DNA of 18,942 bases from UHGV virus genome UHGV-0121731. One strand, given 5' to 3'. Below, piece by piece: positions 1 to 18,942 of the stretch (positions within the stretch are counted from its first letter, which is position 1; the number at the start of each line of letters is the position of its first letter). The DNA is from a virus. The notes below the pieces were generated by a model that saw nothing but the letters and a program-made list of their open reading frames with translations, was not told where the DNA came from and did not search any database. The position numbers and the translations under genes are program-made.

Positions 1-49
1 ATTAGTTAAATTACTCATATCGCTTCAATTGGCTCTAGTTAACTCTGGT

Positions 50-1045
50 TTATGGACGCATTATGGACATTCCTGACACCGGGTTAAGAGTCACAGCATC
101 TTGTAAGAAATCCGGTGCAAAGTGTGCGTAGGTCATAGTTTGCTGAATGTTAGAATGACCCAGGATGCGCTGCAATGTGATTATGTTACCTCCATTCATT
201 ATAAAATGTGTGGCAAATGTATGCCTCAAAACATGTACTGCTTGTCCGTCAGGTAAATCGGGTTTTACTTCCCTGAGAGCGTTACGCACTTTGTAGTAAC
301 TGGCATTAAAAAGCCTGCCTGAATTTTTGGTCTTGATCCGTTTAATCAGGTCCTGCGAAACGGGAATTGTCCTGCGTTTTCCGTTTTTAGTTTTCATAAA
401 CGTAACCATCTGGTTAATGATGTGTTCAGCTTTTAAATTAGACACTTCACTCCAGCGTCCACCAGTAGAAAGGCAGACCAGAGTTGCATTTAATTCATCA
501 CCATCAAGCACGGATAACAGCCGCGTAATCTCTTCACTGGACAAAAAAGCCATTTCCGTAACAGCTTCACGTAACCGTTTAATCTCACGGAACGGGTTGT
601 GAGAGTGGTATTCACCGGCGTCAATTAACTTGGTGAACATCCCGCTCATTATTGCCAGATGTCGATTTACGCTGGCTGGTTTCAGACCATCGTTCATCAT
701 TACAACGCGATAATCAGTTATCGTTTTCTTTGTTAGCTGGTCAGCTCTGGACACTCCCATTTCTGCAAATTTGGCGATTATTGTCGTTAAACGCCCCCGT
801 TCAATATCTCCACGCTCATGTGATTTTCCGTGATATATCCACCATCTGCCTAACAACTCTGTAAGAGTTCGGCGGTCGGCTGGTTTCTCCAACCACTCTT
901 TGTTGTGGTAGTTAACCAGGACATGACGTTCGAATGCTTGAGCTTCACCTTTAGTTTTAAATTTCCGCCTGATACGTTTTCCATCTGCACCCTGCGGTCT
1001 GACGTCCACTTCATAACGACCATCATCGAGCTTTTTAATAGACAT
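50..1045 (-). CDS. int: Tyrosine integrase, P2 Int family (331 aa)
   Basis: Full-length ORF with ATG at 1043-1045. Product begins MSIKKLDDGRYEVDVRPQG and has a C-terminal catalytic region (HVLRHTFATHF...LGHSNIQQTMTYAH) typical of phage tyrosine recombinases. It sits at the prophage end, divergent from the early operon, as in P2 lysogens. Confidence 0.9.
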   Translation of the reverse strand: MSIKKLDDGRYEVDVRPQGADGKRIRRKFKTKGEAQAFERHVLVNYHNKEWLEKPADRRTLTELLGRWWIYHGKSHERGDIERGRLTTIIAKFAEMGVSRADQLTKKTITDYRVVMMNDGLKPASVNRHLAIMSGMFTKLIDAGEYHSHNPFREIKRLREAVTEMAFLSSEEITRLLSVLDGDELNATLVCLSTGGRWSEVSNLKAEHIINQMVTFMKTKNGKRRTIPVSQDLIKRIKTKNSGRLFNASYYKVRNALREVKPDLPDGQAVHVLRHTFATHFIMNGGNIITLQRILGHSNIQQTMTYAHFAPDFLQDAVTLNPVSGMSIMRP

Positions 1046-1138
1046 AAAGCCCTCCGATGACGCTGTTTACTTCTACTACTTGAAAATTAATGCAATTTTC
1101 TTTCGTACATTTACTACACACATATGCTGAATAAATCG

Positions 1139-1438
1139 TCAGCCAGTCTTCTGGTCTGAGTGGTGCAAGGTTGTTGAGTCTTGCCCAATGTGTGCGAGAG
1201 CCGGGGCTATTTGTCCAGCTGCTGGATCTGTTTCATCAAACATGAACCAGTCACGATACTTGCGAAAGCGTGGATGCTTAAACAGCTTCATACCTGCTTC
1301 CATAGGCATTTTTGATTTTCCTGATTCATATCCATGATATGTGTAGTAATTAATTCCAATTAATTCAGCAAGTTCCTTAGTTTTAAGGCGTTCGGATTCA
1401 CGGATGAGCTTTAGTTTCTCACTTTGTTCACTTGACAT
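1139..1438 (-). CDS. C: Immunity repressor, P2 C-like (99 aa from the ATG at 1438; the ORF track extends to a TTG at 1456)
   Basis: Small ORF directly upstream of int on the same strand and divergent from the cox-like gene. The size from the internal ATG equals that of P2 C. The N-terminal helix-turn-helix-like segment is LKTKELAELIGINYYTYHGYESG. Confidence 0.65.
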   Translation of the reverse strand: MSSEQSEKLKLIRESERLKTKELAELIGINYYTYHGYESGKSKMPMEAGMKLFKHPRFRKYRDWFMFDETDPAAGQIAPALAHIGQDSTTLHHSDQKTG

Positions 1439-1531
1439 AATTTTGCTAATCTCCAATTATATTGTTACTTGGCAATTTGTGATTCGCTCAAAAAGGCTCT
1501 AGATGGCTCCAGTTGGTGAATCGCAAATCTT
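1439..1531. promoter_or_regulatory. Divergent early/repressor promoter-operator region (lysis-lysogeny switch) containing a tandem decamer GGCTCTAGAT-GGCTCCAGTT at 1495-1514
   Basis: Non-coding gap between the divergently transcribed C and cox-like genes. It holds two adjacent direct repeats of GGCTCYAGWT. A possible rightward promoter is TTTGTGA (about 1476-1482) with TAGATG (1500-1505), but exact promoter elements are not resolved. Confidence 0.45.
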
Positions 1532-1903
1532 ATGGAGGATAGCAAAGTGACGACAAATGTAGAAATTTCTTGTCCAACTAGCGATGAGGCAAGTTTCGAA
1601 AATGAAGCCAAACGTAAAAGCATTCAGATTTCAGAGCGCCCATCTGATTTGCTGTCGAAAGAAGGTTTTGCTCTTTACATCGGTAAGACACCACGCGCGG
1701 TGGCTGAAATGGCTAAAGCAGGAAAGCTGCCAGCCTTCTACATGACAGACCCATTAAAACCAAGAGGGAAAGCTGAATTATGGATTAATCGCCGTGAGTG
1801 GGACAAGTACGCAGCCCAGCTAGTTGATGAAGCTCCGACAGAATGGCATGACTGGAAAAATCGCATTAGTTACAGCAAATCAAGACATGGCCGTGCGGCT
1901 TAA
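1532..1903 (+). CDS. cox: Cox-like excisionase/early-promoter regulator; true start uncertain (ATG 1532, GTG 1547 or TTG 1649)
   Basis: First gene of the rightward early operon, opposite the repressor. The segment ALYIGKTPRAVAEMAKAGKLPAFYMTDP resembles the winged-helix DNA-binding core of P2 Cox/186 Apl-type proteins. The 123-aa ORF is longer than P2 Cox (91 aa), so an internal start is plausible. Confidence 0.55.
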   Translation: MEDSKVTTNVEISCPTSDEASFENEAKRKSIQISERPSDLLSKEGFALYIGKTPRAVAEMAKAGKLPAFYMTDPLKPRGKAELWINRREWDKYAAQLVDEAPTEWHDWKNRISYSKSRHGRAA

Positions 1904-1913
1904 GGTGGAAAGG

Positions 1914-2084
1914 ATGAACGAGCCTCGTTGTATTGCTCAGTTATTGCGTAACGAAAGCCCCAGGGCGATTGACTTCACCATCACCCACGGTAAGGGGCGT
2001 AAGGGAATCATTATCCGCACCAAAAAACAGAGTCCGGTAAAAAAGGCTCTGACCTTTCTGAAAAGCCGGAGGGTCTGGAAATGA
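1914..2084 (+). CDS. Small basic early protein (56 aa), positional equivalent of P2 orf78
   Basis: ATG at 1914 preceded by AAGGTGGAAAGG and placed 10 nt after the cox stop. Its stop overlaps the next gene's start (ATGA at 2081-2084). Product is K/R-rich. The ORF track shows a longer version from 1824 that overlaps cox. Confidence 0.4.
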   Translation: MNEPRCIAQLLRNESPRAIDFTITHGKGRKGIIIRTKKQSPVKKALTFLKSRRVWK

Positions 2085-2581
2085 CAGTGATGACGCTCAA
2101 TCTCGTTGAAAAACAGCCAGCAGCTATGCGCCGGATAATTGGCAAGCATCTTGCCGTCCCTCGCTGGCAGGATACATGTGATTATTATAATCAGATGATG
2201 GAGCGCGAACGGCTAACGGTTTGCTTTCATGCACAGTTAAAACAGCGTCACGCAACGATGCGTTTTGAAGAAATGAACGACGTCGAACGTGAACGACTGG
2301 TTTGTGCAATTGATGAATTGCGTGGCGCATTCTCAAAACGCCGTCAGGTTGGTGCAAGTGAGTATGCATATATTAGTTTTTTAACAGTCAGTCAGCGTCG
2401 CACTTTATTTATGCACGCACGACTGACAGAAAAAGAATTCAACCAGCCGTACTGGCGAATTAATGAAGAATCATGTTACTGGCGTGATGCTTTATTCCGT
2501 GCATTACGTGAATTATTCAGTCTGTTTGAGTATGCACCGACAATTCTGACGTCGGTAAAACCAGAGCAATATCTGCATTAA
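2081..2581 (+). CDS. Early protein, likely P2 gpB-like replication accessory protein (166 aa)
   Basis: Position between cox and A and a length of 166 aa matching P2 B. Translationally coupled to the upstream small ORF. Assignment is by synteny and size only. Confidence 0.5.
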   Translation: MTVMTLNLVEKQPAAMRRIIGKHLAVPRWQDTCDYYNQMMERERLTVCFHAQLKQRHATMRFEEMNDVERERLVCAIDELRGAFSKRRQVGASEYAYISFLTVSQRRTLFMHARLTEKEFNQPYWRINEESCYWRDALFRALRELFSLFEYAPTILTSVKPEQYLH

Positions 2582-2602
2582 ATAATTAACCAGAGTTTTT
2601 AA

Positions 2603-2630
2603 CGCACTTAATCGTGCGGGGCTTCTTTTT
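2603..2630 (+). terminator. Weak hairpin plus T-run after the B-like gene (possible partial terminator/attenuator)
   Basis: CGCAC-ttaatc-GTGCG stem-loop followed by GGGCTTCTTTTT. The stem is short (5 bp), so this is weak. Confidence 0.25.
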
Positions 2631-2644
2631 GCCTGGAGAAAGTC

Positions 2645-2869
2645 ATGCATACAGTTTCTGAAAATCAGTGCGGTAAATACGCATTACTGCTGCAACAGGC
2701 CAGAACCGAAGCACAGGCCGACGCTGCGACGCGCTTTTCTTCTCATCTTGACGCCATGATTCGCCATATCACAAAGGCGGAGTTATCCCGCGTGGAGATA
2801 GTCGAGCTGCTCAGTCAGGAGTCGGAAAAATTTCACAATATCGGATTGTCTCGCGGGGAGGTGCTTTGA
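2645..2869 (+). CDS. Hypothetical early protein (74 aa), P2 orf80 position
   Basis: ORF with GGAG ribosome-binding site at 2634-2637 and ATG at 2645. Its end overlaps the next gene. It lies in the conserved early-operon block between B and A. Confidence 0.5.
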
Positions 2870-3171
2870 TGTCCTGTTCTCATTCAGTTGTATTACTGAA
2901 TAACGCCTTAAAAATCGCCGTTATGGAAAATGGTGATTTATCTCTTATTCAACTTTGTCTTGATAAAGAAAAACGCGACATAACTGAATCTGTTATCGCG
3001 ATTTATCAGAATGAATTAAACCTCCTGTCTGATGTGGTCAATTTACTTGTTAAACGCGCTGTATTCCACAAGCAAATTTCCTCCGTGGATGAACTGACAA
3101 AATTAACGACAGAAATCGTCAGCTATTGCGCTGATGAATTTAAGAAACTGAACGACAAAAGGAACTGGTAA
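2866..3171 (+). CDS. Hypothetical early protein (101 aa), P2 orf81 position
   Basis: Overlapping start/stop with both neighbours (TAATG at 3169-3173), same strand and operon context. Confidence 0.5.
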
Positions 3172-3395
3172 TGCCGGACAACGTAGATTTCATTCAGGAA
3201 CAACAGGCTGAATTACTGGAGCGCCAGATTAACGCGGCAAGGGTAAAACATTGCGGTGTTTCTGCGCTGGTTTGCGAAGAGTGTGACGTGCCAATACCTG
3301 CTGCCCGTCGTGCGGCTTATCCGTCAGCCACGCGTTGTGTTTCCTGTCAGTCAGTCTTTGAAGCAAAAAACAAACATTACCGGAGAATGGCATGA
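3171..3395 (+). CDS. TraR/DksA-type C4 zinc-finger protein (74 aa), P2 orf82 position
   Basis: Two CxxC pairs (CEEC...CVSC) in a short protein with an N-terminal helical region, the hallmark of phage TraR/DksA-like zinc-finger proteins found at this position in P2-like early operons. Confidence 0.6.
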   Translation: MPDNVDFIQEQQAELLERQINAARVKHCGVSALVCEECDVPIPAARRAAYPSATRCVSCQSVFEAKNKHYRRMA

Positions 3396-3667
3396 GTATT
3401 CGTATCGAAATTGGCGAACGTTATGTCGTTACCAGTGACAGCTTTCAGTTTATTCTCCACGAGAAAAAGAGAGCGGAAAGCGGTAAAAACGCCGGTCAGG
3501 AGTGGCTGGCGGTGGTTGGTTATTACCCGAAATTAAGCCAGCTCGTTTCCGGCCTGATGCATCACGATATTCTGACCGGAAGCGCAAAGTCTTTTGCTGA
3601 TTTAAACGCGCAGGTTGAGCAACTCAGCAAGCGTTGTTCAGAGGCTTTTGGCTCATATGGCCGTTAA
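3392..3667 (+). CDS. Hypothetical early protein (91 aa), P2 orf83 position
   Basis: ATGA overlap with the upstream gene at 3392-3395. Its 3' end overlaps the start of A. Confidence 0.5.
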   Translation: MSIRIEIGERYVVTSDSFQFILHEKKRAESGKNAGQEWLAVVGYYPKLSQLVSGLMHHDILTGSAKSFADLNAQVEQLSKRCSEAFGSYGR

Positions 3668-5921
3668 AGCCTCCGGGCATTTTGTCCCTCCGTCAGCATT
3701 TGCCGCAGGCACCGGTGAGACGTTTACCGGTGCTTATGCATGGAACGCGCCACGCGAGGCCGTCGGGCGCGAAAGACCCCTTACACGTGACGAGATGCGT
3801 CAGGTGCAAGGTGTTTTATCCACGATTAACCGCCTGCCTTACTTTTTGCGCTCGCTGTTTACTTCACGCTATGACTACATCCGGCGCAATAAAAGCCCGG
3901 TACACGGGTTTTATTTCCTCACATCCACTTTTCAGCGTCGTTTATGGCCGCGCATTGAACGTGTGAATCAGCGCCATGAAATGAACACCGACGCGTCGTT
4001 GCTGTTTCTGGCAGAGCGTGACCATTATGCGCGTCTGCCGGGGATGAATGACAAGGAGCTGAAAAAGTTTGCCGCCCGTATCTCATCGCAGCTTTTCATG
4101 ATGTATGAGGAACTCAGCGATGCCTGGGTGGATGCGCATGGCGAAAAAGAATCACTGTTTACGGATGAGGCTCAGGCTCACCTGTATGGTCATGTTGCTG
4201 GCGCTGCACGAGCTTTCAATATTTCCCCGCTCTACTGGAAAAAATACCGTAAAGGACAGATAACCACGAGGCAGGCATATTCTGCCATTGCCCGCCTGTT
4301 TAACGATGAGTGGTGGACTCATCAGCTTAAAGGCCAGCGTATGCGCTGGCATGAAGCGTTACTGATAGCTGTCGGGGAGGTCAATAAAGACCGTTCTCCT
4401 TATGCCAGTAAACATGCCATTCGTGATGTGCGTGCACGCCGCCAGGCAAATCTGGAATTTCTTAAATCGTGTGACCTCGAAAACAGGGAAACCGGCGAGC
4501 GCATCGACCTTATCAGTAAGGTGATGGGCAGTATTTCTAATCCTGAAATTCGCCGGATGGAGCTGATGAACACCATCGCTGGTATTGAGCGTTACGCCGC
4601 CGCAGAGGGTGATGTGGGGATGTTTATCACGCTTACCGCGCCGTCAAAGTATCACCCGACACGTCAGGTCGGAAAAGGTGAAAGTAAAACCGTCCAGCTT
4701 AATCACGGCTGGAACGATGAGGCATTTAATCCAAAGGATGCGCAGCGTTATCTCTGCCGTATCTGGAGCCTGATGCGCACGGCATTCAAGGATAATGATT
4801 TACAGGCCTACGGTTTGCGTGTCGTCGAGCCACACCACGACGGAACGCCGCACTGGCATATGATGCTTTTTTGTAATCCACGCCAGCGTAACCAGATTAT
4901 TGAAATCATGCGTCGTTATGCGCTCAAAGAGGATGGCGACGAAAGAGGAGCCGCGCGAAACCGTTTTCAGGCAAAACACCTTAACCGGGGCGGTGCTGCG
5001 GGATATATCGCGAAATACATCTCAAAAAATATCGACGGCTATGCACTGGATGGTCAGCTCGATAACGATACCGGCAGACCGCTGAAAGACACTGCTGCGG
5101 CTGTTACCGCATGGGCGTCAACGTGGCGTATCCCGCAATTTAAAACGGTTGGCCTGCCGACAATGGGGGCTTACCGTGAACTACGCAAACTGCCTCGCGG
5201 CGTCAGCATTGCTGATGAGTTTGACGAACGCGTCGAGGCTGCACGCGCCGCCGCAGACAGTGGTGATTTTGCGTTGTATATCAGCGCGCAGGGTGGGGCA
5301 AATGTCCCGCGCGATTGTCAGACTGTCAGGGTTGCCCGTAGCCCGTCGGATGACGTTAACGAGTACGAGGAAGAAGTCGAGAGAGTGGTCGGCATTTACG
5401 CACCGCATCTCGGCGCGCGTCATATTCATATCACCAGAACCACGGACTGGCGCATTGTGCCGAAAGTGCCGGTCGTTGAGCCTTTGACTTTAAAAAGCGG
5501 CATCGCCGCGCCTCGGAGTCCTGTCAATAACTGTGGAAAGCTCACCGGTGGTGATACTTCGTTACCGGCTCCCACACCTTCTGAGCACGCCGCAGCAGTG
5601 CTTAATCTGGTTGATGACGGTGTTATCGAATGGGATGACCCGGATGTCGTGAGGGCGCTCAGAGGTGCATTGAAACACGGACTGAGAACACCAAATCGTC
5701 AGCAAAGAAACGGAAGCCCGTTAAAACCGCATGAAATAGCGCCATCAGCCAGACTGACCCGGTCGGAACGAATGCAAATCACCCGTATCCGCGTTGACCT
5801 TGCTCAGAACGGTATCAGGCCGCAGCGATGGGAACTTGAGGCGCTGGCGCGTGGAGCGACATTGGTATATGGCGAAAAAAAATTCACATATCAGCTTGTT
5901 GATAAGCAGTTTGGTTTTTAA
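3657..5921 (+). CDS. A: Rolling-circle replication initiation endonuclease, P2 gpA family (754 aa from the ATG at 3657)
   Basis: N-terminus MAVKASGHFVPPSAFAAGTGETFTGAYAWNAPREAVGRER matches my recollection of P2 A almost exactly. The length is close to P2 A (761 aa). The ORF track starts 14 codons earlier at 3615. Confidence 0.9.
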   Translation: MAVKASGHFVPPSAFAAGTGETFTGAYAWNAPREAVGRERPLTRDEMRQVQGVLSTINRLPYFLRSLFTSRYDYIRRNKSPVHGFYFLTSTFQRRLWPRIERVNQRHEMNTDASLLFLAERDHYARLPGMNDKELKKFAARISSQLFMMYEELSDAWVDAHGEKESLFTDEAQAHLYGHVAGAARAFNISPLYWKKYRKGQITTRQAYSAIARLFNDEWWTHQLKGQRMRWHEALLIAVGEVNKDRSPYASKHAIRDVRARRQANLEFLKSCDLENRETGERIDLISKVMGSISNPEIRRMELMNTIAGIERYAAAEGDVGMFITLTAPSKYHPTRQVGKGESKTVQLNHGWNDEAFNPKDAQRYLCRIWSLMRTAFKDNDLQAYGLRVVEPHHDGTPHWHMMLFCNPRQRNQIIEIMRRYALKEDGDERGAARNRFQAKHLNRGGAAGYIAKYISKNIDGYALDGQLDNDTGRPLKDTAAAVTAWASTWRIPQFKTVGLPTMGAYRELRKLPRGVSIADEFDERVEAARAAADSGDFALYISAQGGANVPRDCQTVRVARSPSDDVNEYEEEVERVVGIYAPHLGARHIHITRTTDWRIVPKVPVVEPLTLKSGIAAPRSPVNNCGKLTGGDTSLPAPTPSEHAAAVLNLVDDGVIEWDDPDVVRALRGALKHGLRTPNRQQRNGSPLKPHEIAPSARLTRSERMQITRIRVDLAQNGIRPQRWELEALARGATLVYGEKKFTYQLVDKQFGF

Positions 5922-6360
5922 TCAAATAGTGTATTAAATGTACTAAAATGTATCTTTTTATATAAAAAACAAAGTGCTGAATCAATTCTCATTTTTTGTA
6001 TTTTTTAGATCGTAAACCGATTAGTGTTACCAAGAGTATTCAGTTAATAGGGCTTTAATTTTTTGCTTCCCTGTTTTGGTGGTTATGTGGTACTGTTTTT
6101 TTATACAGTTTTTGAGGTTGCTGAGAAATAGAAAATGATAGAGTTATATGCGAGCCTTAGTTTAATTCGTTGTAATTAGGATTGGGTATATCATTCGTAC
6201 TGTCAGTGGTCATATACCACTAAGCAAAGCAATAGAATCCTACGAATTATTGTTTAAATAGTAACATTGGCAATTATAACGGCAGTATCTGTGTTTTGTC
6301 TGTCAGTGGTTACATCGAGAGTATGTGATTTGCATTACATAACTAGTTGATGTTCCTTAG

Positions 6361-6389
6361 TTGTAGATAGAAAGTATTCGATTTATTAT
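6361..6389 (+). promoter_or_regulatory. Candidate sigma70 promoter for the cargo operon (-35 TTGTAG 6361-6366, 17-bp spacer, -10 TATTAT 6384-6389)
   Basis: Hexamers with canonical spacing lie about 35 bp upstream of the first cargo gene (ribosome-binding site AAGGA at 6410-6414, ATG at 6423). The region is AT-rich, so chance matches are likely. Confidence 0.25.
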
Positions 6390-6422
6390 AAGAGTACAAA
6401 AATTTATGCTAAGGATACTAGA

Positions 6423-6614
6423 ATGGAGTGGATTACACATATAATCACTTTCTTTGTCGGACTGGGAGCGGGTTGGTCGATTCGTGTCGTGTTTTCATCT
6501 AGAAAGCAAATTGGTGATTCCAGCGTGAACTCAAACAATCATACAGTTACTCAAACTGGTAACAGTGTTACAAATGGAAGTATTGTTGGCGGTAATCAGG
6601 ATAGGTCACATTAA
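6423..6614 (+). CDS. Small membrane protein (63 aa): one predicted TM helix plus an S/N/T/G-rich tail
   Basis: Good ribosome-binding site and ATG. Hydrophobic segment WITHIITFFVGLGAGWSIRVVF followed by a polar tail ending in the repeat GNSVTNGSIVGGNQ. First gene of the low-GC operon. Confidence 0.5.
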   Translation: MEWITHIITFFVGLGAGWSIRVVFSSRKQIGDSSVNSNNHTVTQTGNSVTNGSIVGGNQDRSH

Positions 6615-6625
6615 GAGGTGTTGGT

Positions 6626-7189
6626 GTGTCTATCGAACAGTCAGGAAATACCGTAACAAATGGCAACATAATTTCTGGTGATCAGACTAATCATATATTC
6701 AATTATCCTGTTAAAGGAACTAACAGGGAGATACAGAAACTTTATGAGTGTTTGAAGAGAGGTGATATAGGGGAAGCGGTTCCGGGGTTTTGTGCTGAAC
6801 TAGAGCATTATATGTCCCTTCAGCCTGATATTGATGTTCGGGGGTTAGACGCTAAATTACTCGAGAGTAATAGAAAAGATTTGTTGTTTTTAGCTAAGCA
6901 GATGAAGGAAAAAGCGACAAAAGCTATAATGCGTCGCCAGACGTCAAAAACTGCACAAAGAATATTTGTAATAATTTTAGATCAAATTCATTTTGATTTT
7001 ATAACGAAAGTAACACCACTTATAGAAGCGGATAGCTCCAGAGTGATTGTTGATGAGAAAATCGCTTCAATAATTGATGAATTATATTCGTCTTTGGGAG
7101 AAAACTTGCTAGAGCTAACAGCAAAAGATCTCTTGGGATTACTATTTTTTCTGGGTGGCAATTGCCATATAAGGTGGGATAAATGCTAA
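6626..7189 (+). CDS. Hypothetical protein (187 aa): N-terminal GNTVTNGNIISGDQ repeat and a helical C-terminal domain
   Basis: GTG start preceded by AGAGGTG. Its N-terminus repeats the C-terminal peptide motif of the upstream small ORF. Stop overlaps the next start (ATG at 7183). Confidence 0.55.
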   Translation: MSIEQSGNTVTNGNIISGDQTNHIFNYPVKGTNREIQKLYECLKRGDIGEAVPGFCAELEHYMSLQPDIDVRGLDAKLLESNRKDLLFLAKQMKEKATKAIMRRQTSKTAQRIFVIILDQIHFDFITKVTPLIEADSSRVIVDEKIASIIDELYSSLGENLLELTAKDLLGLLFFLGGNCHIRWDKC

Positions 7190-7683
7190 TTTACCATCCA
7201 GCATATGATGCATATCATTGTTTATTCAGAATGATTGCTCTTATAGACCATGTAAATGAAATTGAGGTAGATAAGGCCAGGATTTTGGACTTCTATCTGC
7301 TATTTCCTGCTTTGGTATCTGAAATTAGAATGCCTCATAATTATTCTTCAATGAAGAAAGAAGCGAAGAAGTATTCTAATATATATCGGGATCCTATTAA
7401 TGTTACATCTACATTCAGAGATATGTATGAAATTCAAATGGCAGCAATAAGATGTCTTGCAGCTACTGGGTTGGTTGAGATGGATTGTCTTGAGAAAAAC
7501 ATTATAAAGAGAACAGATAAGTCTGTTCCAGATGGCTTATTACTTTCTATTAATAATTTTATTAATACGAATAAAACTATTAATACATTTATCATAGACA
7601 CACTATCTAAATTCCATTTGGTTGGAAAAGATGGTTTAAAAGATAGAACGAAGTTAATGGAGTTTAGATATGACTATTCTTAA
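7183..7683 (+). CDS. Hypothetical small helical protein (166 aa); possible middle-component-like partner of the ATPase
   Basis: Overlaps both neighbours (translational coupling). No catalytic motif is recognisable by eye. Confidence 0.55.
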   Translation: MLIYHPAYDAYHCLFRMIALIDHVNEIEVDKARILDFYLLFPALVSEIRMPHNYSSMKKEAKKYSNIYRDPINVTSTFRDMYEIQMAAIRCLAATGLVEMDCLEKNIIKRTDKSVPDGLLLSINNFINTNKTINTFIIDTLSKFHLVGKDGLKDRTKLMEFRYDYS

Positions 7684-9640: not shown

Positions 9641-9740
9641 GCATTTATATCAGCTTGTTTTTGAATCGGGGCAAGTCCAGAGGTGGTAAGCTGTTTGGAG
9701 AAAACTGCAACTGCATTAAAACCGCCCCACGAAGCGGGCG

Positions 9741-9901: not shown

Positions 9902-9923
9902 AAAAAAGCCGCCCGCAGGCGGC
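9902..9923 (-). terminator. Intrinsic terminator of the leftward P-Q transcript
   Basis: GCCGCC-cgca-GGCGGC hairpin (9908-9923) lying 5 nt downstream of the Q stop on the minus strand and followed on that strand by a run of six T (AAAAAA on + at 9902-9907). Confidence 0.6.
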
Positions 9924-9928
9924 GATGT

Positions 9929-11235: not shown

Positions 11236-11664
11236 CGGTGTGTGACCGGACTGATTGAATCGCTGTCACCGTCAGGGCGTCGGCGACTGAGCGCCGAACT
11301 GGCGAAACGTCTGCGTCAGAGTCAGCAGCGTCGGGTGATGGCACAGAAAGCCCCGGACGGCACACCCTACGCGCCACGCCAGCAGCAGAGCGCCAGAAAA
11401 AAGACTGGTCGTGTTAAGCGAAAAATGTTTGCGAAACTTATCACCAGTCGTTTTTTGCATATCCGCGCCAGCCCGGAACAGGCATCAATGGAATTTTACG
11501 GCGGGAAGTCGCCGAAAATCGCCAGTGTGCATCAGTTCGGTCTGTCGGAAGAAACCCGGAAAGACGGTAAGAAAATTGATTATCCGGCGCGTCCTCTGCT
11601 CGGCTTTACCGGTGAGGATGTGCAGATGATTGAAGAGATTATCCTGGCTCACCTCGACCGTTAG
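11236..11664 (+). pseudogene. S: Tail completion protein (P2 gpS family) lacking its start and first residues
   Basis: Frame reading ...LSPSGRRRLSAELAKRLRQSQQRRVMAQKAPDGTPYAPRQ... to a stop at 11664 resembles gpS-type proteins. No start codon or ribosome-binding site is present, and it abuts the terminase remnant on the other strand. Confidence 0.65.
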
Positions 11665-11730: not shown

Positions 11731-12366
11731 ATGAACACTCTCGCAAATATTCAGGAACTCGCGCGCGCACTGCGCAACATGATCCGCACCGGCGTTATCG
11801 TCGAAACCGACCTTAACGCCGGTCGCTGCCGTGTGCAGACCGGCGGCATGTGCACTGACTGGCTTCAGTGGCTGACCCATCGCGCCGGACGTTCGCGCAC
11901 ATGGTGGGCACCTTCCGTGGGGGAACAGGTGCTGATTCTGGCCGTGAGCGGTGAACTCGACACGGCGTTCGTTCTGCCGGGGATTTATTCCGGCGATAAC
12001 CCCGCGCCGTCTGCGTCGTCTGATGCCCTGCATATCCGTTTCCCTGACGGGGCGGTGATTGAATATGAACCCGAAACCAGTGCACTTACGGTAAGCGGAA
12101 TTAAAACGGCCAGCGTGACGGCTTCTGATTCTGTTACCGCCACGGTGCCGGTGGTCACGGTGAAAGCGTCAACCCGTGTCACCCTGGACACACCGGAAGT
12201 GGTCTGCACTAACAAACTGACTACCGGCACGCTGGAAGTGCAGAAGGGCGGGACGATGCGCGGCAACATTGAACACACCGGCGGTGAACTCTCATCAAAC
12301 GGTAAGGTACTGCATACCCATAAACACCCCGGCGACAGTGGCGGCACAACAGGGGGACCTCTATGA
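11731..12366 (+). CDS. V: Baseplate central spike protein, P2 gpV family (211 aa)
   Basis: Length identical to P2 V. N-terminus MNTLANIQELARALRNMIRTG and C-terminus HTHKHPGDSGGTTG match my recollection of gpV. Confidence 0.9.
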   Translation: MNTLANIQELARALRNMIRTGVIVETDLNAGRCRVQTGGMCTDWLQWLTHRAGRSRTWWAPSVGEQVLILAVSGELDTAFVLPGIYSGDNPAPSASSDALHIRFPDGAVIEYEPETSALTVSGIKTASVTASDSVTATVPVVTVKASTRVTLDTPEVVCTNKLTTGTLEVQKGGTMRGNIEHTGGELSSNGKVLHTHKHPGDSGGTTGGPL

Positions 12367-12710
12367 CTGCGCGTTATCTCGGAATGAATCGCAGTGATGG
12401 CCTGACGGTCACTGACCTTGAGCATATCAGCCAGAGTATCGGCGATATCCTGCGCACACCGGTCGGCTCACGGGTGATGCGTCGTGATTACGGCTCGTTG
12501 CTGGCGTCAATGATTGACCAGCCGCAGATCCCGGCGCTTGAGTTGCAGATTAAGGTCGCCTGTTACATGGCGGTGCTGAAATGGGAACCCCGCGTCACCC
12601 TGTCATCCGTCACCACGGCGCGCAGTTTTGACGGGCGAATAACGGTCACGTTAACCGGTCAGCACAACGACACCGGCCAGCCACTTTCGTTAACCATCCC
12701 TGTGAGTTGA
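12363..12710 (+). CDS. W: Baseplate wedge protein, P2 gpW family (115 aa)
   Basis: Same length as P2 W, with an ATGA-coupled start to V. Confidence 0.85.
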   Translation: MTARYLGMNRSDGLTVTDLEHISQSIGDILRTPVGSRVMRRDYGSLLASMIDQPQIPALELQIKVACYMAVLKWEPRVTLSSVTTARSFDGRITVTLTGQHNDTGQPLSLTIPVS

Positions 12711-12714
12711 AACC

Positions 12715-13623
12715 ATGCCGATTATCGACCTGAACCAGCTACCCGCACCGGATGTGGTCGAGGAGCTGGACTTTGAAACCATTCTTGCCGAACGCAAGGC
12801 GACACTGATTTCCCTTTACCCGGAAGACCAGCAGGAGGCGGTCGCCCGTACCCTGATGCTGGAATCTGAGCCTCTCGTCAAACTGCTGGAGGAAAATGCT
12901 TATCGTGAGCTTATCTGGCGTCAGCGTGTGAATGAGGCCGCACGGGCGGTAATGCTGGCCTGTGCCGCCGGTAATGACCTTGATGTGATTGGTGCCAATT
13001 ACAACACCACGCGCCTGATTATCACCCCGGCAGATGATTCGACTATCCCGCCGACACCGGCAGTGATGGAATCTGACACCGATTATCGTCTGCGTATTCA
13101 GCAGGCGTTTGAAGGTTTAAGCGTCGCCGGGTCAGTGGGAGCCTATCAGTATCATGGTCGCAGTGCCGACGGGCGTGTCGCGGATATCTCTGTCACCAGT
13201 CCGTCTCCGGCCTGTGTCACTATCTCTGTGCTGTCTCGCGAAAATAACGGTATCGCATCCGAAGACCTGCTGGCGGTGGTGCGCAACGCCCTTAATGGTG
13301 AGGACGTCAGGCCGGTGGCCGACCGCGTGACCGTGCAGTCTGCCGCCATCGTTGAATACCAGATAAACGCCACGCTTTACCTTTACCCTGGTCCTGAAAG
13401 CGAACCCATCCGCGCTGCTGCCGTGAAAAAACTGGAAGCGTACATCACGGCACAGCACCGGCTGGGGCGCGACATCCGTCTGTCTGCCATTTATGCCGCT
13501 TTGCATGTGGAAGGCGTGCAGCGTGTCGAGCTGGCCGCACCACTGGCCGACATTGTGCTCAACAGTACGCAGGCGTCTTTCTGCACCGAATACAGCGTCG
13601 TGACCGGAGGCTCGGATGAGTGA
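12715..13623 (+). CDS. J: Baseplate wedge protein, P2 gpJ family (302 aa)
   Basis: Same length as P2 J and correct position in the conserved V-W-J-I order. Confidence 0.85.
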   Translation: MPIIDLNQLPAPDVVEELDFETILAERKATLISLYPEDQQEAVARTLMLESEPLVKLLEENAYRELIWRQRVNEAARAVMLACAAGNDLDVIGANYNTTRLIITPADDSTIPPTPAVMESDTDYRLRIQQAFEGLSVAGSVGAYQYHGRSADGRVADISVTSPSPACVTISVLSRENNGIASEDLLAVVRNALNGEDVRPVADRVTVQSAAIVEYQINATLYLYPGPESEPIRAAAVKKLEAYITAQHRLGRDIRLSAIYAALHVEGVQRVELAAPLADIVLNSTQASFCTEYSVVTGGSDE

Positions 13624-14227
13624 TTCGCGCCTGCTGCCGACCGGCTCATCACCGCTTGAAGTCGCCGCCGCAAGAGCCTGTGCGGAAATTGAAAAAACGC
13701 CGGTCAGTATTCGTGAGCTGTGGAACCCGGATACCTGTCCGGCAAATCTGCTGCCGTGGCTGGCGTGGTCATTTTCGGTTGACCGCTGGGATGATAAGTG
13801 GCCGGAAGCGACAAAACGCGCTGTTATCCGCGATGCGTATTTCATTCACTGCCATAAGGGCACTATTGGTGCGATTCGCCGTGTGGTGGAGCCGCTCGGC
13901 TATCTGATTGAGGTGAGGGAGTGGTGGCAGCTCAACGAGGAGCCGGGGACGTTCCGCATCGTTGTTGGCGTGCTTGAGCAGGGTATTACCGAGGAAATGT
14001 ATCAGGAGCTGGAGCGTCTCGTTGCTGATGCAAAACCTGCAAGCCGCCATCTGACGGGACTGGCTATCAGTTTAAGTACAACCGGCAACATTTTTGTCGG
14101 TGCGGGATGCTATCACGGCGACGCCCTGACGGTTTATCCCTACACCCCGGAGGCCATTATTGTCGGAGGGGATTATTTCCCGGCCTCGGCCATTCATTTA
14201 ATTGATAACCTGAGAGTAAACGCATGA
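13616..14227 (+). CDS. I: Baseplate/tail protein, P2 gpI family (203 aa)
   Basis: Position in the conserved V-W-J-I-H order and overlapping start/stop with both neighbours. Confidence 0.75.
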   Translation: MSDSRLLPTGSSPLEVAAARACAEIEKTPVSIRELWNPDTCPANLLPWLAWSFSVDRWDDKWPEATKRAVIRDAYFIHCHKGTIGAIRRVVEPLGYLIEVREWWQLNEEPGTFRIVVGVLEQGITEEMYQELERLVADAKPASRHLTGLAISLSTTGNIFVGAGCYHGDALTVYPYTPEAIIVGGDYFPASAIHLIDNLRVNA

Positions 14228-15408
14228 CAGTGAAATACTACGCCATTCTGACTAATCAGGGCGCAGCACGGCTGGCTAACGCGACGATGCTCGGCAGTAA
14301 GCTGAATCTGACGCAAATGGCCGTTGGTGATGCGAATGGTGTCTTGCCGACACCAGACCCGGCACAGATAAAACTGATTAACCAGAAACGCATCGCGCCG
14401 CTGAATCTTCTGAGTGTTGACCCGAACAACCAGAGTCAGATTATTGCGGAGCAAATCATCCCTGAGAACGAGGGCGGATTCTGGATCCGTGAGATTGGGC
14501 TTTATGATGATGAAGGCGTACTCATTGCGGTGGCGAACTGCCCGGAAACGTACAAACCGCAGTTGCAGGAAGGCAGTGGTCGTACCCAGACTATCCGCAT
14601 GATTCTGGTTGTCACGAATACCGAAGCTATCACGCTGAAAATCGACCCGTCGGTGGTACTGGCGACCCGTAAATATGTGGATGATGAAGTCCTGGAATTA
14701 AGGCTGTATGTGGATGACCAGATGAGCAAACACATTGCCGCACAGGACCCTCATACCCAGTATGCACAGAAACATAATCCGACATTTACCGGAGAACCAA
14801 AAGCACCGACGCCTGCCGCAGGAAATAACACCACGCGGATTGCGACCACTGCGTTTGTACAGGCCGCTATTACCGCTCTGATTAACGGTGCGCCTGACAC
14901 GCTGGACACACTGAAAGAAATTGCCGCGGCCATTAACAATGACCCGAAATTCAGCACCACCATTAACAATGCGCTGGCAGGTAAACAACCGCTGGACAAT
15001 ACGCTGACTCATTTGAGTGGAAAGGATGTTGCCGGTCTTCTCGCATACCTTGGTTTGGGAGAAGCGGCGAAAAGGGATGTGGGCACAGGAGATAATCAGA
15101 TACCGGATATGGGAGCATTCGCTTCTGGTTCGGGATGGTTCAGGCTACCAGGTGGATATATTGTTCAGTTTGGCACTTTTGCAGGAAACACGACCCGCTT
15201 TATCAGTGGACACTTCCCTATACCATTCCCTAATCAGCCGATGGTTTCAGTCAGTGTTATGTCTGATGCCGTTCAGTCAGACCCGTCGATTCCTGCCCCG
15301 CAGGTTTTGTCTGTAAATTTTGAACATATCAGTAATTCAGCGTGGCGTGTGGCAACCAGTGATATCTCACAGCAATACAGATTCAGTTATATTTCGATAG
15401 GACGGTAG
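14224..15408 (+). CDS. H: Tail fibre protein (394 aa): constant N-terminal part (to about nt 15050) fused to the currently expressed variable C-terminal segment
   Basis: The N-terminus MTVKYYAILTNQGAARLANATMLGSKLNLTQMAVGDANG is the conserved tail-fibre N-domain of P2 H-type proteins. The invertase crossover site lies inside the ORF at 15038-15063. Confidence 0.85.
   Translation: MTVKYYAILTNQGAARLANATMLGSKLNLTQMAVGDANGVLPTPDPAQIKLINQKRIAPLNLLSVDPNNQSQIIAEQIIPENEGGFWIREIGLYDDEGVLIAVANCPETYKPQLQEGSGRTQTIRMILVVTNTEAITLKIDPSVVLATRKYVDDEVLELRLYVDDQMSKHIAAQDPHTQYAQKHNPTFTGEPKAPTPAAGNNTTRIATTAFVQAAITALINGAPDTLDTLKEIAAAINNDPKFSTTINNALAGKQPLDNTLTHLSGKDVAGLLAYLGLGEAAKRDVGTGDNQIPDMGAFASGSGWFRLPGGYIVQFGTFAGNTTRFISGHFPIPFPNQPMVSVSVMSDAVQSDPSIPAPQVLSVNFEHISNSAWRVATSDISQQYRFSYISIGR
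15038..15063. other. Left crossover site of the invertible segment (26 bp, TTCTCGCATACCTTGGTTTGGGAGAA)
   Basis: Imperfect dyad with the Hin/Gin-family site shape. Its right 14 bp (TTGGTTTGGGAGAA) are identical to the reverse complement of the site at 16914-16939. It encodes the LGLGE join in the fibre protein. Confidence 0.65.
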
Positions 15409-15410
15409 AA

Positions 15411-15851
15411 ATGCAGAAATATATTTTCAGTGCCGATAAAAATGCGTTTTTCCCTGTGGAGCTTAAAATCGCTTATCAGGAATCCGGCGAATGGCCCGAT
15501 GATGGAATCGAAATTGACGACACTGTTGCTGCCGAATTTATGAAGGAAGCACCAGAAGGAAAATACAGAGGTGTCATCGACGGAATGCCTGCATGGATTG
15601 ATATTCCACCGCCAACTCATGAGGAACAAATTGCCGCAGCCGAACTGAAAAAGCAGCAATTGATTAATCAGGTCAACGAATACATAAACAGTAAGCAATG
15701 GCCTGGTAAAGCGGCGATTGGTCGCCTGAAAGGTGAGGAACTGGTGCAATATAATTTGTGGCTGGATTATCTGGACGCACTGGAACTGGTCGATACTTCC
15801 GGTGCGCCAGATATTGAATGGCCTACGCCTCCGGCAGTTCAGGCCAGATGA
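15411..15851 (+). CDS. Tail fibre assembly chaperone for the current orientation (146 aa)
   Basis: Immediately follows the fibre gene. C-terminus LWLDYLDALELVDTSGAPDIEWP is the conserved tail-fibre-assembly C-terminal motif. Confidence 0.8.
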   Translation: MQKYIFSADKNAFFPVELKIAYQESGEWPDDGIEIDDTVAAEFMKEAPEGKYRGVIDGMPAWIDIPPPTHEEQIAAAELKKQQLINQVNEYINSKQWPGKAAIGRLKGEELVQYNLWLDYLDALELVDTSGAPDIEWPTPPAVQAR

Positions 15852-16425
15852 CATCAGGCGCGGTGCTGGTATCTGTTGCCTCCACCGCGTCAATGTAATC
15901 CAGCACAGCGTTAAGTCGGGTGGTTTCTGCCTGCGTCAGCTTCCGCCCGGCCCGTAATTTCATCTGAATCAGACTGATGGAAGCCATTGCAGCATCAATC
16001 AGCGACTGGCGCTTTGCTTCTGCCGCGTCTAGTGCGGCGCTATGCTGTGCCTCGGTATCCGTCACCCATTTCTCACCATCCCATTTATCGAATGGCGTTA
16101 ACGGGGCGATAGTGGTTGTATTTTCAGGGTAATCACCCGGAGCTGTGATTTCTTTCGATTCTCCTGTTTCGGTGCTATAGATGATTTCACCGCGATGGTC
16201 TGGTACATATTCCCATGAGTTAAAATCTGCAGAACGGCAGATTGCATAACCAGCTTTATGTGTAACTGGTGCATCTAAACAAGAACATGCCGGGATACCG
16301 ACGCCAACGGCAAGATATTCTGTTGATGATGAAATGTATTCCCGTGTCGTGTTGTCATAGTTATAGACGGTAATATCACCCGCTACTGTGGCAATAAATT
16401 CACTGTTTAATTTTGCCTGTGTCAT
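15823..16425 (-). CDS. Alternative tail fibre assembly chaperone (200 aa), convergent partner inside the invertible segment
   Basis: C-terminus LNAVLDYIDAVEATDTSTAPDVIWPELP shares the same chaperone motif. Its start overlaps the stop of the alternative fibre segment (TAATG). Confidence 0.8.
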   Translation of the reverse strand: MTQAKLNSEFIATVAGDITVYNYDNTTREYISSSTEYLAVGVGIPACSCLDAPVTHKAGYAICRSADFNSWEYVPDHRGEIIYSTETGESKEITAPGDYPENTTTIAPLTPFDKWDGEKWVTDTEAQHSAALDAAEAKRQSLIDAAMASISLIQMKLRAGRKLTQAETTRLNAVLDYIDAVEATDTSTAPDVIWPELPEA

Positions 16426-16926
16426 TATGCAGCCCTCACGATGTAGTTAAATGCAATGTTGCGCGGGCGGGTTTCAGTGCCAATATTCGCTGCATTGTCA
16501 GAAGCAACCCCACGAGTGCTGACAGCTCTTACTGCTGAAGGTAGGCTTTGAGGCTCCCGGTCAGTATAGGCAATCCCCCCATCCCCTCCAGTTGCTAGCG
16601 GAGCATAACTCCCGGCCTGACCAATAGTTGACGATGTTGTATTTGAACCTGTCCAGATCTGCTGGTTATGTGAGTGGTCTCTGAGTGAATGGCCTTGAGA
16701 TGAAAGCAGCGCACGCCCGTTGTCGATACCACGACTATCATCCCATCCACGAATAAACTCACCGCGTAAATCAGGTAATTTATTTGTTGGATAAGCCTTT
16801 GCCAGTTCCGGGTATTCTTCAGCAGAAAATGCCGCACCGTTGCATTTCAGCCAGCCTGTTGGCGGTGTGGCTGAAGGCCATGGAACAGGCACCCCAACAG
16901 GTAATGCTGAGCCTTCTCCCAAACCA
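16425..16926 (-). CDS. Alternative, currently silent tail-fibre C-terminal segment (tail-collar type); expressed only after inversion fuses it to the constant part of H
   Basis: The minus-strand frame crosses the right crossover site and continues ...GLGEGSALPVGVPVPWPSATPPTGWLKCNGAAFSAEEYPELAKAYP..LPDLRGEFIRGWDD, a classic tail-collar fibre motif. It has no promoter or start of its own; the ORF-track Met at 16967 lies outside the segment. Confidence 0.75.
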
Positions 16927-16939
16927 ACGTTTATGAAAA
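16914..16939. other. Right crossover site of the invertible segment (TTCTCCCAAACCAACGTTTATGAAAA)
   Basis: Reverse complement TTTTCATAAACGTTGGTTTGGGAGAA shares its right half exactly with the left site. It lies about 50 bp upstream of the invertase gene. Confidence 0.65.
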
Positions 16940-16988
16940 TGCAGAGATAACGGGCAAGTGGCATCATCTCCGGTTTTTATTCAGGGGG

Positions 16989-17588
16989 ATGCTCATGTTT
17001 ATTGGCTATGTACGCGTATCAACAAATGACCAGAACACGGAATTGCAGCGTAACGCGCTGGAATGCGCGGGATGTGAGCGGATTTTTGAGGACAAAATCA
17101 GCGGCACGAAGTCCGACAGGCCGGGACTGAAAAAACTGCTCAGGACATTATCGGAGGGGGATACACTGGTAGTCTGGAAGCTGGACCGGCTGGGGCGTAG
17201 TATGCGGCATCTGGTCATTCTGGTTGAGGAACTGCGCGAACGTGGCATTAATTTTCGCAGCCTGACGGATGCTATTGATACCAGCACGCCGATGGGGCGT
17301 TTTTTCTTTCATGTGATGGGTGCCCTGGCTGAAATGGAACGAGAACTCATTGTCGAGCGGACTCGGGCCGGGCTGGAAGCGGCCAGAGCCAAAGGTCGTA
17401 TTGGTGGCAGACGTCCTAAACTCACCACGAGTGAGTGGGAGCAGGCCGGGCGTTTGCTGGCTGCAGGGGAGTCACGTCAACGCGTGGCACTGATTTTTGA
17501 TATTGGTCTGTCCACGCTCTATAAAAAATTTCCCTCATCAGCGACAAAGAATAAATTGTGTCATCCCTTAGCCAACCGGGACAAATAG
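16989..17588 (+). CDS. Serine DNA invertase, Gin/Hin/Pin/Cin family (199 aa; alternative ATG at 16995)
   Basis: MLMFIGYVRVSTNDQNTELQRNALECAGCERIFEDKISGTKSDRPGLKKLL...GRIGGRRPKLT is near-identical in pattern to Gin/Pin, with catalytic Ser in the VRVSTNDQ motif and a C-terminal helix-turn-helix. Confidence 0.9.
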   Translation: MLMFIGYVRVSTNDQNTELQRNALECAGCERIFEDKISGTKSDRPGLKKLLRTLSEGDTLVVWKLDRLGRSMRHLVILVEELRERGINFRSLTDAIDTSTPMGRFFFHVMGALAEMERELIVERTRAGLEAARAKGRIGGRRPKLTTSEWEQAGRLLAAGESRQRVALIFDIGLSTLYKKFPSSATKNKLCHPLANRDK

Positions 17589-17647: not shown

Positions 17648-18028
17648 ATGAGTGACTATCATCACGGCGTGCAGGTGCTGGAGATTAACGACGGCACCCG
17701 CGTCATTTCCACCGTATCCACTGCCATTGTCGGCATGGTCTGCACGGCCAGCGATGCGGATGCGGAAACCTTCCCCCTCAATAAACCGGTGCTGATTACC
17801 AATGTGCAGAGTGCAATTGCAAAGGCTGGTAAAAAAGGCACGCTGGCGGCGTCGTTGCAGGCCATCGCTGACCAGTCAAAACCGGTCACCGTTGTCGTGC
17901 GTGTGGAAGACGGCACCGGCGAAGACGAGGAAACGAAACTTGCGCAGACCGTTTCCAATATCATCGGCACCACCGACGAAAACGGCCAGTACACCGGACT
18001 GAAAGCCCTGCTGGCGGCGGAGTCGGTA
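17648..18028 (+). pseudogene. FI: Tail sheath protein (P2 gpFI family), N-terminal ~127 codons only
   Basis: [31 protein letters not shown]... matches the gpFI N-terminus as I remember it, but the frame stops after 146 codons; a full sheath is about 396 aa. Resemblance is lost after ...LLAAESV at about 18028. Confidence 0.7.
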
Positions 18029-18029
18029 A

Positions 18030-18179
18030 GACACCGAGTCGAAAATCTCCGTGGTCTGCACCTATTTCCGGTTGACGATGGACGGTAAGGAGCTGGTCGA
18101 AATCGACACCATCAACATGATTGAGAAGGTGAACGGCGTCGACCGGCTGGAGCAACACCGCCGCAATATCGGCCTGTGA
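18030..18179 (+). pseudogene. FII: Tail tube protein (P2 gpFII family), C-terminal ~49 codons only
   Basis: A different frame reads [49 protein letters not shown] to a stop at 18177-18179, about 56 bp upstream of E, which is where the tube gene ends in P2. There is no start codon. Identity rests on position and on recollection of the tube C-terminus. Confidence 0.5.
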
Positions 18180-18235
18180 TTTTCATACGGTCAGCCAGGC
18201 TGACCGGTTAACCCTGATTCAGAAGTGAGAAAACC

Positions 18236-18511
18236 ATGAACAAAGAAAATGTCATTACCCTGGAAAATCCGGTCAAACGTGGTGAGCAGGTTATCGAACA
18301 GGTCACGCTGATGAAACCCAGTGCCGGGACGCTGCGCGGTGTCAGTCTGGCTGCGGTTGCAAACTCCGAAGTCGATGCACTGATTAAGGTACTGCCGCGC
18401 ATGACGGCACCGATGCTGACCGAGCAGGAGGTCGCCGCGCTGGAACTGCCTGACCTTGTGGCGCTGGCCGGTAAGGTGGTCGGTTTTTTGTCGCCGAACT
18501 CGGTGCAGTGA
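18236..18511 (+). CDS. E: Tail assembly chaperone, P2 gpE family (91 aa)
   Basis: Same size as P2 E, with the slippery heptamer near its 3' end and the tape-measure start overlapping downstream. Confidence 0.85.
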   Translation: MNKENVITLENPVKRGEQVIEQVTLMKPSAGTLRGVSLAAVANSEVDALIKVLPRMTAPMLTEQEVAALELPDLVALAGKVVGFLSPNSVQ

Positions 18512-18663
18512 CGTTTCCGAAAAATCTGTCGGTCGATGACCTGATGGCGGATGTGGCAGTGATATTTCACTGGCCGCCATCAGAACTGTATCCCATGAGC
18601 CTGACCGAACTCATCACATGGCGCGAAAAGGCGCTCCGGCGAAGCGGAAACACGAATGAGTAA
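18236..18663 (+). CDS. E+E' frameshift fusion product (tail chaperone extension)
   Basis: Joining the E frame to the -1 frame at 18484-18490 gives a continuous product ending at TAA 18661-18663, which overlaps the tape-measure ATG at 18656 as in P2. Confidence 0.6.
18484..18490 (+). promoter_or_regulatory. Programmed -1 ribosomal frameshift site T_TTT_TTG producing E+E'
   Basis: A canonical X_XXY_YYZ heptamer in the E frame. The -1 frame is open from here to 18663 and reads VAELGAVTFPKNLSVDDLMADVAVIFHWPPSELYPMSLTELITWREKALRRSGNTNE. Confidence 0.7.
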
Positions 18664-18892
18664 CAATGTAAAATTACAGGTATTGCTCAGGGCTGTTGAC
18701 CAGGCATCCCGCCCATTTAAATCCATCCGTACAGCGAGTAAGTCGCTGTCGGGGGATAAGCGCGTCATAGACGAGCAGGACTGGACAATCACTAAGGTGA
18801 CACATTTTCTGAATAATAGCGGCTTCACGACGTCCCTGGAGCTTGAGGTCAGGCTTTCTGATGTGGAGTACGAAACAGAAGATGATGAGTGA
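18656..18892 (+). pseudogene. In-frame fusion remnant: tape-measure (gpT) N-terminal ~34 codons joined to the gpD C-terminal ~44 codons
   Basis: MSNNVKLQVLLRAVDQASRPFKSIRTASKSLSGD has the gpT start character, but the ORF is only 78 aa; a tape measure is over 800 aa. The tail ...WTITKVTHFLNNSGFTTSLELEVRLSDVEYETEDDE is followed by AT-rich non-coding DNA as expected after the last tail gene D. The D assignment is from memory and position. Confidence 0.55.
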
Positions 18893-18942
18893 TGTATTTA
18901 TTTTATCTGTTTGTTTTATAAGGATAAATTAACTAAAATGGC

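Follow-up and report, generated by a model that had tools for sequence, protein, structure and literature searches.

A defective P2-like prophage in pflA of Escherichia coli bears three deletions and retains its repressor, a defence cassette and an active DNA invertase

When a prophage has lost the genes for building and releasing particles while many of its other reading frames stay full length, it must be asked how it was inactivated and whether the remaining genes are being kept by selection. The virus genome UHGV-0121731, a stretch of 18,942 nucleotides (nt) that we analysed as a whole and refer to as the window, raises this question. An earlier note, made from the sequence alone, described it as a reduced prophage that retains regulation, replication, cargo and host-range switching, and took it to be kept for its cargo and immunity functions. 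We consider it likely, with a probability of roughly 80%, that the window represents a recently inactivated P2-like prophage inserted in pflA of one E. coli lineage, which neither lyses its host nor forms particles and remains as an island with a repressor, a defence cassette and an active invertase.

To map the deletions by local blastn, we employed phage pro483 (NC_028943) as the reference and the prophage of E. coli Z142-6 as a second reference. Phage pro483 is the top match of the window among phage genomes (megablast; 75% covered at 96.7% identity), and the two are collinear at approximately 97% identity, with 28.8 kb of pro483 spanned by 18.9 kb of the window. In strain Z142-6, the best match among 5,426 complete E. 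coli genomes, an intact prophage of 32 kb occupies the same position in the chromosome; window positions 1-11243 are 98.6% identical to it, and the early half aligns without gaps. The element has its gene order (97-98.6% nucleotide identity), its integrase and its pflA attachment site in common with both references, its immunity proteins and invertible fibre module in common with pro483, and its cargo in common with Z142-6. It differs from both in having lost 12.5 kb with genes for head, lysis and tail, and in forming no particles. The window belongs to the P2-like prophages (Peduovirus, Peduoviridae) as a defective representative: it possesses cos, the C/Cox switch, the A and B replication genes and the late activator gene ogr, and its head, lysis and contractile-tail gene set is incomplete, with P through R, FI/FII and T-U-D affected.

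Comparison with pro483 revealed exactly three deletions, of 7,444, 1,188 and 3,866 bp, each with a microhomology of 1-2 nt at the junction and none with an insertion sequence (IS) element. The largest deletion, D1 (junction at window 11243/11244; pro483 8632|16077), removed codons 1-497 of P, all of O, N, M, L, X, Y, K, lysA/B/C and R, and codons 1-10 of S. It left P', the final 93 codons of the large terminase gene (10963-11243, minus strand; tblastn match to amino acids [aa] 498-590 only), next to S', the tail completion protein without its first 10 codons (11242-11664, plus strand; tblastn aa 11-150). A GTG codon arises at this junction, and S' is annotated as a 140-aa gene in copies of the element. 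Deletion D2 (18028/18029; pro483 22890|24079) extends from codon 128 of FI through codon 123 of FII and joins them out of frame, leaving FI', a sheath remnant of 127 codons with an out-of-frame tail that contains the junction (17648-18088, plus strand), and FII', the last 49 codons of the tube protein (18030-18179, plus strand; tblastn). Deletion D3 (18757/18758; pro483 24809|28676) removed T from about codon 35, the whole of U, and D up to about codon 343, so that codons 1-34 of T are joined in frame to codons 344-387 of D across the junction. The resulting 78-aa open reading frame (ORF), T'-'D (18656-18892, plus strand), is unique to this element and serves as a handy exact marker.

Searches by blastn, and by tblastn with the pro483 proteins, thus bear out the earlier statement that P, the capsid block, the lysis genes, FI, FII, T, U and D are deleted or truncated, and that the deletions are few and clean. 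The same is true for the full-length state of the integrase, repressor, cox, A, hot-spot operon, baseplate genes, invertible fibre module and invertase. That inventory was otherwise correct and silent on the truncation of S and the loss of R. Its claim that every gene needed for particle formation is gone applies to P, the capsid genes, sheath, tube and T-U-D, and is overstated in that Q, E/E', the baseplate genes and the fibre genes are intact. The identity and gene content of a reduced prophage also stood, while the phrase "whole element" did not, as the att core, most of ogr and attR lie outside the window.

Exact look-up of the T'-'D protein identified at least 24 independent contigs, all of which carry this element between pflA and pflB. 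These contigs derive from human-gut metagenomes of several studies, from sequencing runs assembled in Logan and from one draft genome of E. coli (GCA_012702095.1), and they differ from the window by 0-1 single-nucleotide polymorphism (SNP) per 10-16 kb. The cross-strain comparison of presence and breakpoints proposed in the earlier note therefore recovered one element with the same junctions throughout, ruling out an assembly artefact as the source of the junctions. The genes flanking the element are 100% identical to those of E. coli, and strain GF31 harbours an intact P2-like prophage at the same site. A 13-nt att core (ACCAATAACTGAC) is located 42-54 nt to the left of window position 1, with a second copy 110 nt past ogr (attR), and the complete element measures approximately 19.4 kb. 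The insertion lies within codons 2-5 of pflA, where the prophage supplies a new 20-residue N-terminus (MSNLTNCNTTENTATAGATK; contig L017, 6291-6362). With the start of pflA replaced by phage sequence, the pflA promoter region is also phage-supplied. A short remnant of the pflA start is kept at attR (contig L007, 10651-10663).

Analysis of sequence divergence indicated that the element is young. The block S'-V-W-J differs by 2 mismatches in 1,885 nt (99.9% identity) from the IMG/VR contig L054, which is intact across R-S. In view of this match and of the near-identical copies, the element is too young for point lesions to have accumulated in its approximately 12 kb of coding sequence under any selection regime, and there is too little post-deletion diversity for the ratio of non-synonymous to synonymous substitution rates (dN/dS) after inactivation to be measured. 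The genes that depend on a virion (Q, the baseplate and fibre genes, E/E') and the fragments P', FI', FII' and T'-'D are as clean as the cargo. In addition, the endpoint of D1 recurs in other P2-like prophages, which argues for mutational bias and not for selection on this element. For these reasons, the inference from clean deletions without point decay to retention for cargo and immunity fails. The intactness of the retained genes reflects youth and deletion as a fast route of prophage inactivation, not demonstrated selection. In the proposed course of events, three microhomology-mediated deletions would have removed, in no stated order, the terminase/capsid/lysis block, the sheath and tube genes, and U and D together with the tape measure; the largest would have used deletion-prone endpoints of this phage family, and the remainder would act as a chromosomally locked island.

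The main alternative is that the prophage has been domesticated, its repressor and defence cassette protecting the host and selection keeping the retained genes intact. The cassette is complete and 98-100% identical to those of intact prophages, and at least 24 samples, drawn from several studies, all have the element fixed at a single locus. Defective P2 elements whose defence genes remain nearly identical ("UGRs with P2 markers") have also been described, with domestication versus ongoing exchange left open (PMC13586616). Against this stands the near absence of post-deletion diversity, with which purifying selection cannot be shown, together with the equal intactness of genes that are useless without a virion and the position of D1 at a mutational hot spot. 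The only changes observed, P->S in P' and I56T in W, are both non-synonymous (n=2, which is uninformative); the former is private to the window, and all other differences in P' among the prophages carrying D1 are synonymous. Domestication thus appears improbable to us, while keeping an appreciable share of the probability. Far less credible is a helper-dependent mobilisable element, that is, a satellite or defective interfering genome excised, replicated and packaged by a heteroimmune P2-like phage. Such a role would be consistent with the intact cos, int, cox, A, B and ogr, with the att core at both sides, and with the finding of an identical D1 junction in another prophage (L003), which is inserted at another attachment site. 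All copies found are, however, located at pflA, the D1 carriers have no common flank haplotypes, and helper-manipulating genes are lacking. Moreover, the 19.4 kb correspond to about 58% of the P2 genome and a dimer to about 115%, which, given the packaging of P2 and P4, makes packaging into P2 heads doubtful. No helper-exploiting genes of a P4-like phage satellite were found in the window, where all non-cargo ORFs are ordinary P2 genes or fragments of them. Co-option of the baseplate and fibre genes as an R-type tailocin or other structure, with inversion switching its target, draws on the intact baseplate, fibre, chaperone and invertase genes and on a segment that flips. It is refuted by gene content, since the genes for sheath, tube and tape measure as well as U, D, R and all lysis genes are either absent or incomplete and a contractile tail could be neither built nor released. 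The element is neither a tailocin nor a P4-type satellite.

Several points also weigh against recent inactivation in a single lineage with a functional island as its outcome. Neither the 5,426 complete E. coli genomes of RefSeq nor the representative genomes of GTDB contain the contiguous window, and for this reason the host lineage and the age of the element are poorly constrained. Its occurrence in many samples could alternatively be due to positive selection on the host clone. Host immunity and anti-phage activity are deduced from family membership only, and the CTD9 protein of the cassette contains no recognised effector domain, its N-terminal 72 aa matching no family.

Recently inactivated prophages of this kind belong to the general class of cryptic or "grounded" prophages (PMC6379469). 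Like the elements of PMC13586616, the window element has an inactivated backbone of P2 type, and its defence cassette hardly differs from the cassettes of intact phages. Among the core genes of those elements, the P2 "primase" (a replication function) is reported to be pseudogenised most frequently, and loss follows no constant pattern; the window element, in contrast, has three large clean deletions, no pseudogenised core genes and an intact A. It is a further defective P2-like prophage with a defence cassette, in line with the current view that remnants of prophages act as a reservoir for immunity genes. In practice it is valuable as a clean natural test case, with a defined locus (pflA), three mapped lesions, and an intact immunity module, cargo and active invertase.

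How the largest deletion arose could be approached through its endpoints. An identical P'|S' junction is present in a prophage of E. coli Z1323PEC0011, which has different cargo, a different attachment site and approximately 3% divergence. An ancient shared deletion was ruled out, given the absence of a common flank haplotype, the synonymous nature of the P' differences and the presence of the S'-J block in a relative that is intact there. As the P' differences from intact P are synonymous only, the divergence predates the deletion. The junction sequences thus suggest that D1 either arose more than once or spreads by conversion very near the junction. The right end of D1 falls in a site within codons 10-13 of S (pro483 16074-16084, GACCGGC|TGACCGG, motif GACCGGCTGACCGG; hereafter the S-site), where at least 10 independent deletions in P2-like prophages of E. 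coli and Salmonella (L003-L006, L118-L127, L226) have their right end. The left partners, in pro483 coordinates, are Q 7786, P 8588, P 8632, P 9565, O 10489, O 11123, L 13588, K 14385 (in a Salmonella prophage), lysC 15510 and R 15682. Homology at the S-site junctions amounts to 1-8 nt and is often imperfect.

As an internal control, other truncated lengths of S in the same protein cluster were checked, and the 45 nt next to the S-site contain no real endpoints. The 133-aa and 125-aa forms of S are contig-end artefacts, and the 136-aa form results from a 1-nt deletion within the S-site motif of an otherwise intact E. fergusonii prophage (CP057266, L225), in which a change of GACCGG to GACGG frameshifts S; none of them is a scattered endpoint. 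Sampling from the P side, carried out independently of S (L004, L005, L006, L228-L232), revealed two nodes in the 3' part of the terminase gene P. Node 8631-8633 (window about 11243) has the right partners 9223, 15509, 16077 and 20472, while node 8585-8588 (window about 11199) has the right partners 16073, 23330 and 26704. Position 15509/10 serves as an endpoint from both sides. The S-site junction was found in none of the 156 P2-like loci of IMG/VR that span the S-site, and P' adjoins S' in 5 of approximately 1,630 carriers in complete E. coli genomes. Scans for the D1 junction gave two chance matches in metagenomes and none in the GTDB representatives. The endpoint events are rare but strongly clustered.

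One tentative explanation, to which we give rather less than even odds, is that P2-like prophages hold a few deletion-prone nodes (S codons 10-13; P 8585-8588 and 8631-8633; the GATATC at 15507), through which a breakage or template-switch mechanism channels the repeated, independent loss of head and lysis genes. The window would then hold two instances of these nodes, D1 (8632|16077) and the left end of D3 (at GAT^ATC). If this is true, a P2-type phage turns into a harmless cargo-bearing island by a specific route and not by random decay, which is relevant to prophage domestication. Should a large-scale survey confirm the recurrent endpoints, they would help to explain in what way and at what speed bacterial genomes come to hold disarmed temperate phages, and whether a mechanistic bias acts in that process.

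We searched for a mechanism behind the clustering. Neither a hairpin nor a second copy of the motif was found for the S-site, and the P-site and S-site show no similarity of the kind expected for a recombinase. Among the 4-mers near breakpoints, CCGG ranks 1-2 of 136, which is not significant (family-wise P=0.12). CRISPR self-targeting with one-directional deletion of the Cas3 type was rejected, as no spacer was found in the 5,426 E. coli genomes for any of three protospacer frames (two of type I-E and one of type I-F). A homing endonuclease beside S was ruled out as well, since the HNH gene of the GPEC1446 prophage sits in the cargo hot spot. The 6-mer GATATC is top-ranked near 19 distinct nodes (binomial p=2e-4), with a family-wise P of 0.09 over all 6-mers and 0.003 over palindromic 6-mers. 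The blunt position GAT^ATC coincides exactly with node 15509 and with the left end of D3 (window 18757, pro483 24808/9), and another GATATC (pro483 8637) is 3 nt away from node 8633. This pattern suggests that some of the deletions may have begun as restriction-type breaks at EcoRV-type sites, by which the S-site itself is not explained. Candidates for the proposed channelling are restriction-type cleavage at GATATC together with a fragile or stalling site in S. Several nodes also show short similarities to a stretch of gene A (GCTGCGGGATATATCGCG; pro483 5017-5073, window about 4963-5019), beside the codons of the active-site tyrosines.

The invertase of the element is active, as shown by the two orientations of its target segment among natural copies. 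The tail fibre gene H (394 aa in this orientation; Pfam Phage_tail_fib and Gp53-like_C) and the chaperone gene G (146 aa; Caudo_TAP) occupy 14224-15851 on the plus strand. Two 27-nt inverted repeats (15038-15064 and 16913-16939) enclose an invertible segment of approximately 1.9 kb (15038-16939), which carries, on the minus strand, an alternative C-terminus of H (H', 16425-16967) and the chaperone G' (15823-16425). The adjoining gene (16995-17588, plus strand) encodes a 197-aa serine DNA invertase of the Gin/Cin/Pin/Hin type with Resolvase and HTH_7 domains. It matches the structures of Mu Gin over residues 1-182 (E=1e-94) and contains the catalytic Ser9 (N-terminus MFIGYVRVSTNDQ). In two natural copies (L009 and L013), the segment 15050-16930 is flipped, so that H comprises 442 aa and G' lies on the forward strand, with the ORFs intact. 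The module agrees with the Din family (Gin/Cin/Pin/Hin) in every feature tested, namely an invertase with Ser9 and a helix-turn-helix (HTH) domain, inverted crossover sites of the approximately 26-bp type, and inversion itself. Of the host-range switching attributed to the element, the inversion is thus real, while a phenotype is not to be expected without particles, as sheath, tube and capsid are gone.

Similar to the Pin/P-segment of e14 in K-12 and to the Gin/G-segment of Mu, a Gin-family invertase here adjoins a segment with alternative fibre C-termini and chaperones. The backbone differs in being of P2 type, neither lambdoid nor Mu, and a single pair of inverted repeats yields two states. 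Flipping in a defective prophage is known from the Pin segment of e14, and the invertible segments of P2-like prophages have also been studied (PMC4272514). The metagenomic copy L013, which shares D2 and D3, carries 9 SNPs within 138 nt of G' (equivalent to window 15856-15993). This cluster is likely a recombination patch from another phage, and such defective copies may still be exchanging fibre sequence.

The cargo is a four-gene cassette resembling ABC-3C/Lamassu systems (6423-9607, plus strand), located between A and Q, where P2-like phages are known to have a hot spot for defence genes (PMC13586616). It consists of a 63-aa transmembrane peptide (6423-6614), a 187-aa CTD9 protein (6626-7189; Pfam CTD9, 2e-29), an MC5 middle component (7183-7683; Pfam MC5, 1e-52) and a 645-aa LmuB-like SMC/ABC ATPase (7670-9607; PADLOC LmuB, 7e-47, among the best matches), all on the plus strand, and its GC content is low (33-36%). 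The ATPase and the middle component are those of an ABC-3C/Lamassu system, and by analogy the cassette probably has anti-phage activity; from what is known of the family, it would be expressed from the usual P2 defence hot spot. The LmuB-type SMC-like ATPase, MC5, the CTD9-bearing partner and the A-Q location are shared with Lamassu/ABC-3C. The cassette differs in having, in place of a recognised LmuA-type effector domain, a conserved membrane peptide of 63-70 aa and the 187-aa CTD9 protein. Relatives with ATPase identities as low as 55% retain the four genes in this order, the small peptide included. A split or pseudogenised effector was ruled out, because the membrane ORF and the CTD9 ORF remain separate genes over that same range. 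A motif GN(S/T)VTNG(S/N)I at the end of the membrane peptide recurs at the start of the CTD9 protein (6626-6690). Judging from these sequences, the peptide and the CTD9 protein may together form an unrecognised effector of the system.

The remaining phage genes are likewise preserved. By tblastn of all pro483 proteins, int, C, cox, B, A, four small early ORFs, Q, V, W, J, I, H, G, the inverted G'/H' pair, the invertase, E and E' are full length. The tyrosine integrase (50-1045, minus strand; 331 aa) is 99.7% identical to pro483 Int over 331/331 aa, with the Phage_integrase Pfam domain detected in identical copies. The C-type immunity repressor (1139-1438, minus strand; 99 aa) and Cox, the excisionase and regulator of the early switch (1532-1903, plus strand; PF10743 in identical copies), are both 100% identical to their pro483 counterparts. 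From family knowledge, the repressor would silence the early operon and give the host immunity to homoimmune P2-like phages. Replication protein B (2081-2581, plus strand; 166 aa) is full length at 98% identity. The replication initiator A, an HUH nickase of 754 aa (3657-5921, plus strand), is covered by tblastn over aa 1-719 of pro483 A, and the complete ORF was found identically on 19 contigs; the origin of replication presumably lies within this gene. A cos cohesive-end sequence was located at 9741-9759 (plus strand) by its match to the P2 cos 19-mer; all 18 of the searched positions match at 9741-9758, position 5 being left open. With Int, Cox, A, B, cos and ogr intact, excision and replication would be possible in principle. 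The portal gene Q (9929-10963, minus strand) is intact, with 99.4% identity over 344/344 aa, and from the operon structure of P2 it was probably cut off from its late promoter by D1. The baseplate genes V, W, J and I (11731-14227, plus strand) are full length at 96-99% identity, and the tail assembly chaperones E and E' (18236-18663, plus strand) are intact at 98-100% identity. Only the first 5 nt of the late-gene activator ogr (18938-18942, plus strand) fall within the window, the remainder lying beyond it; in identical copies ogr is intact (72 aa, PF04606; L007, 10319-10537). Directly after the cargo ATPase, a palindrome with a perfect 13-bp stem (CAAAACCATGCAT..ATGCATGGTTTTG) spans window 9612-9641, and from its sequence and its position between cargo and cos it looks like a bidirectional terminator.

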